Virus record (IMG/VR): IMGVR_UViG_3300014502_000001
Location: 1 to 64,000 of that record
DNA: 64,000 nucleotides
Reading direction: 5' to 3' (one strand)
Source: a virus
The position numbers and the translations under genes are program-made. Of this stretch, positions 96 through 12,608 are shown piece by piece. Each line of letters opens with the position of its first letter. Position 1 is the stretch's first letter. The notes beneath the pieces are model-generated. The model saw nothing but the letters and a program-made list of their open reading frames with translations. It searched no databases and was not told where the DNA came from.

Positions 96-796
96 TGTCC
101 AATCTCCATTAACTGACCTGTAAACGAAGCTGCCAACTCCATACTAGGAGCCAGCTTCTCTCTGTGCCATCTAGAGTGTTCACTCATCTTTCTTCGTGTA
201 TTGGCACTGGGGTGTCTACCATAATTGTGATGCTCCGAGCCCACACACCCTTCCATTTTTGTCCGAAACTCTGAATTCCGCCACTGCCTCTTGGCATTCT
301 CGCTTCGCTTCCTGCGTGTATCAAGAGAAGCGGGAGCTCTGCGTTTTGAGCCTTCACTCATTTTCTTCAGCGTTTCTTGAGAAAGATTTTCTCTCTTGTG
401 TGACTTACTCAAATTCACCCTATGCTCGTCTGAGAAAATCTTCTTTTTGCCAGAAACACTCATCTTCAATCTTGTCTCAGCACTAGGATTCATTATGCCA
501 TCACCGCCGTCGGTAGAATTAGTGAGTCTATAACCTAGCGCCCTATACTTTTTAATCATTGCCATTTCATCAGCATTCCAGATTGCATTGCTTTTCAGCA
601 ATCCAATTCTGACTTCATAGCCACTTTCACAGACAGATCGTATCCAGCGTGCAATGTATGTATCAGCACTTTTCCTTGCACCACTTCTGTGAACAGCTAA
701 TCTCTTTTCCAGAGAACGTTTTGTTTGTCCAATATATCTCATTCCAGAATTACCAGGCTCTGTAGAATAGAGATAATAAACTTTGATCAGACTCAT
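92..796 (-). CDS. GIY-YIG homing endonuclease with NUMOD3-like repeats
   Basis: VYYLY...RYIGQT..LEKRL..H, conserved E and N (LTNSTDGGDG), repeated S.ETR.KMS motifs. Confidence 0.85.
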   Translation of the reverse strand: MSLIKVYYLYSTEPGNSGMRYIGQTKRSLEKRLAVHRSGARKSADTYIARWIRSVCESGYEVRIGLLKSNAIWNADEMAMIKKYRALGYRLTNSTDGGDGIMNPSAETRLKMSVSGKKKIFSDEHRVNLSKSHKRENLSQETLKKMSEGSKRRAPASLDTRRKRSENAKRQWRNSEFRTKMEGCVGSEHHNYGRHPSANTRRKMSEHSRWHREKLAPSMELAASFTGQLMEIGQ

Positions 797-1530
797 TTCT
801 TATTCACGCCGTACTCGGAGAGCTTGGATTCAGCGGTGCGTACAGAGCGCACGCCCGCCCGCGCCGCAAGGCGCTTTATGATAGCCTTGGCTGCAGAATA
901 TGTTTGTGTGCCCTGCACAAAGCGAACCTTTTTGTTGAGCTTGAAAGCCCACTGGCCTGTACCACGTGGCTGGCTGCCGTGGCTGTAAAGATATCTCGTC
1001 GTATCAAAATGAACAGAGCCTTTGGGGATACGATGAAAAGCGCCCTTCTGAGAGCCTGTACCTTTGTCTCGGAGATCCTTACTGGTTCCCCACTTCATGC
1101 CTTGAACGCCGTACTCGTCAATGGACTCTTTCGCCTTCTTCATTTTCTGAACAAGTTTGCCTTGCCTGAATCGTGCAGTGTCTAGCCAATTCTTAGCAGC
1201 TATGAGACGATCAGCACCTTTTCTTGTTTTGGCCACATTGACGTTGCTCAGCGCTCTGTGCTGTAAAAAACTTCTCTCGTGGTCGTTAACACCAAAGGAA
1301 CCACGAGCAGGACTTTTACGCTCGCCCCACTTCATTCCTTGAACGCCGTACTCGGAGATGACCAGATTCTCACCGCTGAGATATCCCTCAGTGCGATAGG
1401 CTGGCACCTTCACGCCACCCTTGATCAGCTTGTCACGCATGCGAGCGTGAAGCTTGTGAAAGTGCTGCACCGCTAGCTTAGCAGACGGGCTGTGCATACC
1501 TGCTACACCGTATTCATTCAAAGTTGTCAT
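793..1530 (-). CDS. Basic polyprotein with four E|YGV(xGMKWG) tags; putative virion internal proteins
   Basis: LNEYGVAGM, ISEYGVQGMKWG, IDEYGVQGMKWG and terminal LSEYGV separate K/R-rich segments. Confidence 0.7.
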   Translation of the reverse strand: MTTLNEYGVAGMHSPSAKLAVQHFHKLHARMRDKLIKGGVKVPAYRTEGYLSGENLVISEYGVQGMKWGERKSPARGSFGVNDHERSFLQHRALSNVNVAKTRKGADRLIAAKNWLDTARFRQGKLVQKMKKAKESIDEYGVQGMKWGTSKDLRDKGTGSQKGAFHRIPKGSVHFDTTRYLYSHGSQPRGTGQWAFKLNKKVRFVQGTQTYSAAKAIIKRLAARAGVRSVRTAESKLSEYGVNKK

Positions 1531-1937
1531 TTGTCCGGATCTCCTGCGCCCGCTTTCTTGGCTCCGGTCGCTTCATTGACAGCCGGAGTAGCAGCAATGG
1601 ATGTGACAGCCGCCGCCACTGCATTGACCATAGCAGGATCGGAAGTTGTTTTAGCAGTGGTCACCACCGCAGCAACTGCGTCCTTTTTCTGATCAGAATC
1701 CGTACGCTCTTTGAAATATCGCTTGGTCAGCATGACGCCCAGTCCAAGAGTCAGCTGAGTTGCGAATGCCAAGAATGGCAGGTTAGGGAACCAGATTATA
1801 AGGATGTACGCAACGAATAGCAGAAGCAAATACAGAAGAATAGCATCGGCAGAAATGATCTCAATGTTGAAAAGTGATCGCTTATACAGGGAGCGAGATC
1901 TCTCATCGGCGATCGGGCCATTTGCCACTACCAGCAC
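1527..1937 (-). CDS. Membrane protein, holin candidate
   Basis: Two hydrophobic helices and a charged tail; near the GH25 endolysin. Confidence 0.45.
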   Translation of the reverse strand: MLVVANGPIADERSRSLYKRSLFNIEIISADAILLYLLLLFVAYILIIWFPNLPFLAFATQLTLGLGVMLTKRYFKERTDSDQKKDAVAAVVTTAKTTSDPAMVNAVAAAVTSIAATPAVNEATGAKKAGAGDPDK

Positions 1938-12320: not shown

Positions 12321-12338
12321 GATGTCACCGCTCTACCA

Positions 12339-12608
12339 TCAGAGCTGGCCTGGCCTTCTCATTTTTGTTGTCTTGGTGGCCAGCGTGCCATACTCTTTGT
12401 TCAGCCTTCTGCTGACATACCTGACATCGAACATCCTTGGCTTGCTGGCAGAATACACACCATAGTGATCCACCCTTTTCATCCTAGCCAGCAGCGTCTT
12501 CATGCGGCGCGCAACAACAGCAGGGTCCTTTGACTTTGTTGCACGCTCACCCCATTTCATGCCTGCTACGCCGTACTCGCGGATGCGCTGAATAGACTCT
12601 TTCAGCAT
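12339..12608 (-). CDS. Small basic tagged protein (IRE|YGVAGMKWG)
   Basis: Same tag as the neighbouring polyproteins; K/R-rich. Confidence 0.7.
   Translation of the reverse strand: MLKESIQRIREYGVAGMKWGERATKSKDPAVVARRMKTLLARMKRVDHYGVYSASKPRMFDVRYVSRRLNKEYGTLATKTTKMRRPGQL

Follow-up and report, generated by a model that had tools for sequence, protein, structure and literature searches.

Peptide tags after candidate head-protease sites in probable cargo polyproteins of a phage with a T4-type prohead

Phage T4 builds its head with a gp20 portal, a gp21 protease of family S77 and a gp23 capsid protein, and loads it with internal proteins (IPI-III and Alt), a diverse set of basic or enzymatic cargo that includes ADP-ribosyltransferase (ART) enzymes and has short N-terminal leaders ending in (L/I)-x-E (PMC3012670, PMC5694885). 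Here, we describe the genome of an uncultured phage that encodes a head module of this type and putative cargo with such leaders. We analyzed a 64-kb stretch of DNA (the window), which is the first part of a complete 92,771-bp virus record (IMGVR_UViG_3300014502_000001) with a 123-bp terminal repeat. Four of its proteins, P0001 to P0004, carry two short peptides, tag A (Pfam family DUF7211) and tag B, each copy directly after an aliphatic-x-Glu triplet. We consider it probable, though well short of certain, that these are T4-style head cargo and internal proteins, synthesised as polyproteins and then cleaved by the head protease.

The parallel with T4 extends to gene order, as a further tagged basic protein, P0008, is encoded directly upstream of the protease gene, like T4 gp67 and gp68. 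There are also clear differences. In T4, the conserved element is the leader before the cut, the capsid-targeting sequence, which is removed. The leaders of this phage are unlike one another, and it is the peptide behind the predicted cut that is conserved, so that it would remain on the product. Furthermore, T4 cargo proteins are single, whereas up to four or five products are predicted here from one open reading frame (ORF), and T4 proteins have neither DUF7211 nor tag B. The giant phages phiKZ, 201phi2-1 and SPN3US use a gp21-type protease with Glu at P1 to process many head and ejection proteins at x-x-Glu motifs, often at multiple sites (PMC5694885), as is predicted for the cargo here. 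They differ in their A/S/G-x-E motifs and long propeptides, and have no shared tag after the site and no effector polyproteins.

Two other groups of proteins are comparable. Polyvalent proteins of the MuF/SPP1 gp7 type and MuF polymorphic toxins are portal-adjacent head proteins fused to effectors (ART, the ParB-like nuclease family and others), an arrangement that P0003, a probable head protein, resembles (Iyer et al. 2017, PMC5512222; Jamet et al. 2017, PMC5576092). These effectors are believed to be delivered along with the DNA. Neither paper describes inter-module tags or head-protease sites. Processing has been proposed there via an internal metallopeptidase (MPTase) domain, whereas we find no peptidase family in P0002 or P0003, and the MuF likeness here is a structural lead (TM 0.36-0.44). 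The second group comprises DUF7211 proteins of Rhodococcus phage ReqiPoco6 (gp018-gp023), of Arthrobacter, Streptomyces and Gordonia phages, and of many IMG/VR contigs. They have the same GVxGMKWG core and hydrophobic residue at -3, basic cargo, and genes beside those for terminase and portal, but have His rather than Glu before the tag, an S78 rather than an S77 protease, and nearly always one tag per gene (183 of 197) instead of polyproteins. Their typical arrangement is a leader (median 13 aa), the tag, and then ~150 aa; the leader length fits the 10-20 aa of T4 capsid-targeting leaders (PMC5694885). The records that we examined list them as hypothetical proteins or give gp numbers only. 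The locus described here is thus a Glu-type counterpart with a different protease family, which appears to combine T4-type processed head cargo with polyvalent MuF proteins.

The tags had been reported in a first-pass annotation made from the sequence alone. Translation of the four minus-strand ORFs and a six-frame regular-expression scan of the window reproduced every motif where that annotation had placed it, at 11 sites (window coordinates of site plus tag; the slash marks the candidate cut):

12549-12584, minus strand: P0004, tag A, IRE/YGVAGMKWG (tag 12549-12575)
11037-11072, minus strand: P0003, tag A, IEE/YGVIGMKWG, at the MuF-like/ART junction (tag 11037-11063)
10386-10457, minus strand: P0003, tag B variant, LVE/GNAQSGNYGHKGQGTGEVGGS (tag from 10448)
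9346-9417, minus strand: P0002, tag B, LDE/GGAGSGNFGHSGQGTGEVGGS (tag from 9408)
8545-8616, minus strand: P0002, tag B, LQE/GGAGSGNFGHSGQGTGEVGGS (tag from 8607)
7948-7983, minus strand: P0002, tag A, LDE/YGVVGMKWG (tag 7948-7974)
7405-7440, minus strand: P0002, tag A, LSE/HGVMGMKWG (tag 7405-7431)
1486-1521, minus strand: P0001, degenerate tag A, LNE/YGVAGMHSP (tag from 1512)
1324-1359, minus strand: P0001, tag A, ISE/YGVQGMKWG (tag 1324-1350)
1087-1122, minus strand: P0001, tag A, IDE/YGVQGMKWG (tag 1087-1113)
796-822, minus strand: P0001, truncated tag A, LSE/YGVNKK and stop (tag 796-813; repeat family D4), ending where a GIY-YIG gene begins

The window therefore contains six full copies of tag A together with a degenerate and a truncated one. 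Every tag is on the minus strand, and neither motif occurs in any other frame or strand of the window. All 11 sites have Glu at -1 and Leu or Ile at -3, while proteome frequencies are 0.06 for Glu and 0.21 for Leu, Ile and Val together. Six further copies of tag A lie outside the window, in P0009 (after LHE, LSE, INE and VQE) and in P0008 (after LAE and VSE). The whole genome has 14 copies of tag A (12 complete) and three of tag B, every one after [LIV]-x-E.

Tag A corresponds to DUF7211 (PF23847), a 25-position family of unknown function with 12 matches in a scan of the genome. P0009 (75.3 bits), P0001 (45), P0002 (41.6) and P0008 (39) exceed the gathering score of 27, and the single-copy proteins P0004 (25.3) and P0003 (25.1) fall slightly under it. 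The tags here depart from the usual DUF7211 context, in which L-x-His precedes the aromatic-G-V-x-G-M-K-W-G core, as the residue is Glu in 14 of 14 copies. Copies of tag A differ at synonymous positions, and some share identical stretches of 20-30 nt. No PDB chain contains the tag. Tag B has no Pfam family match. Its two identical copies share 25 aa and differ synonymously at 13 codons, which indicates that selection acts on the peptide itself. With 13 of the 25 codons different, recent duplication or gene conversion is ruled out as the source of the identity. Chance or low complexity as the source of the tags can likewise be rejected, given a Glu that never varies, a match to a Pfam family and copies that diverge at synonymous positions.

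Along the minus strand, the portal gene is followed by P0004, P0003 and P0002, and these by a lysis cassette, homing endonuclease genes, and P0001. Beyond P0001, across the end of the record, follow P0008 (374 aa), P0006 (461 aa, a protease-scaffold protein) and P0007 (a gp23-type capsid protein); P0009 (404 aa, basic) belongs to the tail region of the genome. The tags divide the window proteins into the following parts:

12615-14321, minus strand: portal protein, T4 gp20 family (PF07230 Portal_T4, 2.2e-32; phrog_213)
12339-12608, minus strand: P0004, 89 aa; 11-aa leader MLKESIQRIRE, tag A, and a 78-aa basic peptide (pI ~11)
11064-12320, minus strand: P0003 residues 1-419, probable MuF-like head protein domain (structural lead)
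10449-11063, minus strand: P0003 residues 420-624, ART-fold module, PARP/Tpt1-like (PF00644 PARP, 0.0045)
9564-10448, minus strand: P0003 residues 625-918, type IB topoisomerase (Topo IB) module (PF01028, 6.7e-17)
9409-9585, minus strand: P0002 residues 1-59, acidic leader with DVVGMLGFDP
8608-9408, minus strand: P0002 residues 60-326, Tpt1/KptA-like ART module and small C-terminal subdomain (phrog_11974, 1.1e-9; phrog_5470, 4.8e-5)
7975-8607, minus strand: P0002 residues 327-537, possible ParB/sulfiredoxin-like module (lead only)
7432-7974, minus strand: P0002 residues 538-718, Tpt1/KptA-like ART module (PF01885, 27.6 bits, cut-off 26; PF00644, 5.8e-5)
7318-7431, minus strand: P0002 residues 719-755, short 37-aa C-terminal peptide after LSE/HGVMGMKWG
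793-1530, minus strand: P0001, 245 aa, polyprotein of basic peptides

The T4 gp20-like portal named in the first-pass annotation is thus borne out by PF07230. Its Topo IB module is solid, matching the Deinococcus radiodurans TopIB structure 2f4q (7.8e-21) over residues 664-913, so that the fold begins just after the tag. All three ART modules are Tpt1/PARP-like by PF01885, PF00644, phrog_11974 and phrog_5470, and the one in P0003 is paralogous to module 3 of P0002 (E 9e-10). Its ParB-like and MuF modules stand as weaker leads, both from the Atlas. For P0002 residues 327-537, the Atlas features score is 0.93, with ParB_N in 15 of 30 matches and a structure TM of ~0.5. For P0003 residues 1-419, PF04233 is carried by six of the 10 nearest Atlas structure rows, at a TM of only 0.36-0.44, and there is no Pfam match, Phage_Mu_F included, at E≤0.1. 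Homologues of this MuF-like domain come after the portal gene in the related records G004, G010, G087 and G088. A profile search found no peptidase family in P0001-P0004, P0008 or P0009.

The basic proteins have predicted products of ~5-25 kDa with a pI of 10-11.5. Those of P0001 would be ~54, 79 and 100 aa long (pI 10-10.7), and P0008 is rich in Ala and Lys. The leaders ahead of the first tag, of 11 aa in P0004, 6 in P0001, 22 in P0008 and 17 in P0009, each end at an (L/I)-x-E site. They have no sequence in common; the conserved element comes after the site.

The first-pass annotation had proposed a search outside the window for the prohead protease, and Pfam, tblastn, motifs and fold all identify P0006 (genome 89375-90760) as a T4 gp21-type enzyme. 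P0006 matches Peptidase_S77 (PF03420) at 29 bits (cut-off 27) and phrog_207 at 2.4e-29. Its residues 18-230 match gp21 of T4-like cyanophages and Tevenvirinae by tblastn (32.6% identity, 8e-12, 713 records), and alignment with T4 gp21 shows that the H-P histidine and G-x-S-S-R-G serine motifs are kept. A sequence search of the PDB with P0006 found no homologue; the only significant PDB matches of an AlphaFold model of residues 1-200 (pLDDT 68.8) are to 5JBL, T4 gp21 (E 3e-8, TM 0.51-0.66). The proteases of T4, phiKZ, 201phi2-1 and SPN3US all cut after Glu (PMC5694885), and by analogy with these experimentally studied members of its family, P0006 would be expected to do so as well.

The same motif is found where such a protease would be expected to act. 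In the capsid protein P0007 (PF07068, 1.5e-41), six of eight [LIV]-x-E sites fall within the first 85 residues (Fisher p 0.0013). One of them, LNE85/D, aligns with LQE/D of the capsid homologue in G004. Both lie 15-17 residues ahead of the conserved segment LLPAVRR, which can be aligned with T4 gp23 as well. In P0006 itself, 15 of 19 [LIV]-x-E sites are in the acidic, scaffold-like tail. For comparison, sites in the T4 record include LTE65/A in gp23 and LRE10/S in gp24.

We find that the residue before tag A varies with phage lineage. An IMG/VR scan for G-V-x-G-M-K-W-G, with the upstream residues left free, returned at least 104 contigs and 230 copies. Among the matches listed, His occupies the second position before the Gly in 226 of the 230 copies, Glu in three (on one contig) and Gln in one, and Leu stands at -3 from the site in 203 of 230. 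Peptidase_S78 was found in 31 of 33 longer His-type records, in ORFs of ~570-740 aa that are protease-capsid fusions. Such a fusion is present in all 11 His-type records that are ≥90% complete, and none of the 33 has S77 or a T4-type portal. Furthermore, [LIVMF]-x-H is enriched 2.2-2.8-fold (p<0.01) in the fusion protein at three of four S78 loci examined; the fourth has no enrichment, and the ORF taken there may not be the fusion. One S78-bearing contig is a lone exception (L035, record G002), with FLEQA before GVKGMKWG and hence Gln (or Glu two further back) in place of His.

A scan requiring Glu before tag A returned 12 stretches on nine contigs. Each of the nine has replication or head genes in common with this phage (23-50% identity), and they thus form one broad clade. 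Record G004 has both an S77 protease (38% identity to P0006) and a T4-type portal, G010 has a T4-type portal, and no S77 phage with His-type tags was seen. The co-variation of preceding residue and protease that the first-pass annotation had proposed as a check is therefore found for tag A, with His accompanying S78 protease-capsid fusions and Glu confined to this clade; for tag B, the preceding residue agrees with that of tag A in the same genome.

Tag B has its own distribution. Its usual form, GG[PAEKS]GSGN[FHYW]GHxGRPGx[VI]GGS, one residue shorter than that of this phage, is found in >117 viral contigs, often in several copies per contig. The residue before it varies among phages (Asp, Lys, Leu/Ala, Asn, Phe, Arg or Glu). 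Within a locus it is identical in 89% of 145 pairs (21% expected), while positions -2 to -4 are variable. The three genomes that hold both tags have the same residue before each, E/E here and D/D in proviruses G044 and G086. Where that residue is Glu, Leu, Ile or Val is at -3 in seven of seven copies (three here, one hybrid in G004/G010 and three on contig L251). The hybrid tag, LLE/YGTPESGNWGHAGRPNEVGGS (LLE/YGTPESGNWGH...), joins the opening two residues of tag A to the body of tag B, and is located near 30545 (minus strand) in G004 and near 8340 in G010. In G004, the closest relative with an S77 protease, it lies within the N-terminal extension of the MuF-like protein. An attempt to link the residue classes of tag B to a protease family failed, as none of five families (S77, S78, S78_2, ClpP and S49) was detected in the Asp- and Lys-type genomes tested (G047, G071, G085, G044 and G086; loci L164, L240, L267, L158/L277 and L183/L278). 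These phages have either a head protease of an unrecognised kind or another role for the residue.

Tags and cargo are exchanged among relatives. The same Topo IB cargo comes after tag B here and after tag A in G006. The P0002 leader DV(V/I)GMLGFDP is kept in G001 (15141-16013) and G006 (35879-37144), where it is followed by the site, a tag and an unrelated cargo, in G001 an HExxH metallopeptidase-like module. Thus, a tag and its cargo behave as one unit. The acidic leader of P0002 is a candidate for a true targeting leader, or for a peptide that docks to MuF or the portal. In G006 (39094-41808; L140 1094-3808), a C-terminal extension of the portal (phrog_10963) begins SQE/MGVKGMKWG, and would represent tagged cargo fused to the portal itself. 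In addition, the C-terminal subdomain of the first P0002 ART module (residues 258-316, window 8638-8814) is a small mobile domain, with ~42% identity to the C-terminal region of an ORF of ~165 aa that stands alone in G004 (27543-27719) and G010 (11135-11311).

The motifs, the selection on the peptide, the position of the tags at module starts, the protease family and the lineage-specific residue before the tags are established directly. From these we propose that the phage builds a gp20/gp21/gp23-type prohead into which two kinds of protein would be loaded. The first would be two effector polyproteins, one consisting of the MuF-like domain, an ART and a topoisomerase IB, and the other of an acidic leader, an ART, a ParB-like module and a second ART. 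The second kind would be the products of four genes that encode strings of very basic 5-25 kDa peptides. Entry into the prohead might occur by binding of the MuF domain to the portal (as for SPP1 gp7; PMC5576092), via the acidic leader of P0002, or by attraction of the basic peptides to the very acidic tail of P0006. The active S77 protease would then cut after Glu at each [L/I/V]-x-E site, and would also trim the capsid propeptide and its own acidic scaffold tail. Every product would begin with tag A or tag B. The freed enzymes and basic peptides would be retained in the head and pass into the host along with the DNA, like T4 IPI-III and Alt. The first-pass annotation had suggested such a load-and-cut scheme; all the computational tests run agree with its cut-site half, and its loading half remains a proposal with the candidate routes above.

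Both tags are the same across phages that differ in site residue and protease family, which suggests that the tag is not the recognition element. We infer that the tags are a portable signal for head retention or loading that would serve every one of these heads in the same way, be it in loading, retention on DNA or ejection. A broader reading, which we hold tentatively and rate as somewhat less than an even chance, is that tailed phages share a portable cargo-tag system independent of head protease type. DUF7211 and GG-x-GSGN-x-GH-x-GRPG-x-VGGS would then mark the starts of packed and injected proteins, and the single preceding residue would be adapted to the maturation protease of each phage (His for S78 fusions, Glu for S77, and Asp, Lys or others for proteases not recognised here). 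The tag on the new N terminus would mediate retention on DNA or ejection, and this phage would be a natural specificity-swap control and an example of the system's expansion to multi-effector polyproteins.

Several observations weigh against processing at these sites by the head protease. As all Glu-type phages belong to a single broad clade, His may have given way to Glu only once. Within the tag-bearing Glu-type set, S77 was found only here and in G004, no head protease being recognised on the other contigs, which are 11-72% complete; the fragment of G006 has a portal of another PHROG and, again, no recognised head protease. The five protease families went undetected both in the three nearly complete Asp/Lys-type tag B phages and in the two Asp-type proviruses. 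The P1' residues are Tyr, His or Gly here, compared with Ala or Ser at the T4 sites examined. For tag A alone, the series His, Glu, Asp and Gln could represent a functional polar residue of the tag itself. Our literature search found no paper that mentions DUF7211 or either tag motif. Finally, G087 and G088, complete relatives with a protease 41-42% identical to P0006, lack both tags. They came from an alignment query on the protease side, which returned four new relatives and G004 again, where a query with one protein alone gave no match. DUF7211 is absent from all four, and the three loci tested have no repeated tag. G087 (L285) and G088 (L284) have untagged MuF-like proteins of 578-579 aa whose last ~170 residues differ between the two, that is, untagged cargo is exchanged on the same scaffold. 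With the same protease and untagged MuF-cargo fusions, these relatives indicate that the tag is not needed for that route.

Among other explanations, the one that survives best, although we judge it unlikely, is that the tags serve for docking or retention and are not cut at all. The preceding residue would be part of the binding motif and co-evolve with a phage-specific partner (portal, MuF protein or scaffold), and the multi-domain proteins would work as intact polyvalent proteins. Such a role would suit the Asp/Lys-type tag B phages in which no head protease is recognisable, the all-polar residue series before tag A, and the location, after the supposed site, of the part conserved across all phages, which is unlike the T4 targeting leader. 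It leaves unexplained, however, why all 14 tag A and all seven tag B copies of the Glu type show the full T4-type consensus with its aliphatic residue at -3, and why the same motif clusters in the capsid propeptide and scaffold tail. Unless they are removed, the short, non-conserved leaders of 6-22 aa before the first tag would have no obvious role, and the L-x-H arrays in the protease-capsid spacers of His-type phages also count against this explanation.

The polyproteins might instead be cut at these sites by another protease, either a host enzyme or an activity after injection, which we regard as improbable. Metallopeptidase domains have been proposed to process polyvalent proteins (Iyer et al. 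2017; PMC5512222), an HExxH module follows the tag in the G001 homologue of P0002, and there are tag B phages without known head proteases. No peptidase domain was found in P0001-P0004, P0008 or P0009, however, and the site matches the S77 specificity known from the family and the sites in the phage's own capsid propeptide.

Slightly less probable still is that the tags are mainly recombination junctions for cargo swapping, comparable to the pre-toxin motifs of polymorphic toxins, with the peptide a by-product of conserved DNA. Cargo after the tag does differ among relatives, the same cargo can follow different tags, homing endonuclease genes flank three tagged genes with one tag copy truncated at such a junction, and some tag A copies are identical over 20-30 nt. 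The 13 synonymous differences across 25 identical residues of tag B and the synonymous variation of tag A nevertheless point to selection on the peptide, and swapping at the tags is compatible with cutting by the head protease rather than a replacement for it. Self-cleavage is ruled out, as the site is followed by Tyr, His, Phe or Gly and thus by no Ser/Thr/Cys nucleophile, and an N-end rule effect, in which a new N-terminal Tyr or Phe makes the cargo short-lived in the host, is speculation that does not fit the His, Ala, Lys and Met of many copies.

If our interpretation is true, the widespread DUF7211 and a second, uncatalogued phage motif mark head-carried proteins, and sequence alone would suffice to predict virion-delivered effectors (ARTs, nucleases, topoisomerases and anti-defence proteins). 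The specificity of uncharacterised head proteases could be read directly from the residue before the tag, and large phage effector proteins could be split into separate enzymes without an internal peptidase. The tags might also serve as packaging signals that bring foreign proteins into phage heads, a use to which the T4 targeting sequence has already been put. The joint switch of His to Glu and of protease family provides a built-in control, which makes the hypothesis cheap to test.

A search for cultured or near-identical relatives gave no DNA match in the phage collection and no match for P0009, and the portal matches only T4-like portals, at ~25% identity. Homing endonuclease genes (GIY-YIG and HNH) flank three of the tagged genes (window 92-796 and 3274-3984; genome 80353-81024 and 91884-92432). 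The GIY-YIG gene at 92-796 begins exactly where the last tag A copy of P0001 is cut off (...AAGCTCTCCGAGTACGGCGTGA and then ATAAGAAATGAGT), and conserved tag DNA may therefore have served as an insertion or breakpoint site. A HAD/phosphoheptose-isomerase-like gene (phrog_1238) is located at window 2796-3296, and GT9 heptosyltransferase-like genes adjoin the capsid gene (genome 84303-88036). Together, these genes suggest a Gram-negative host and sugar modification.

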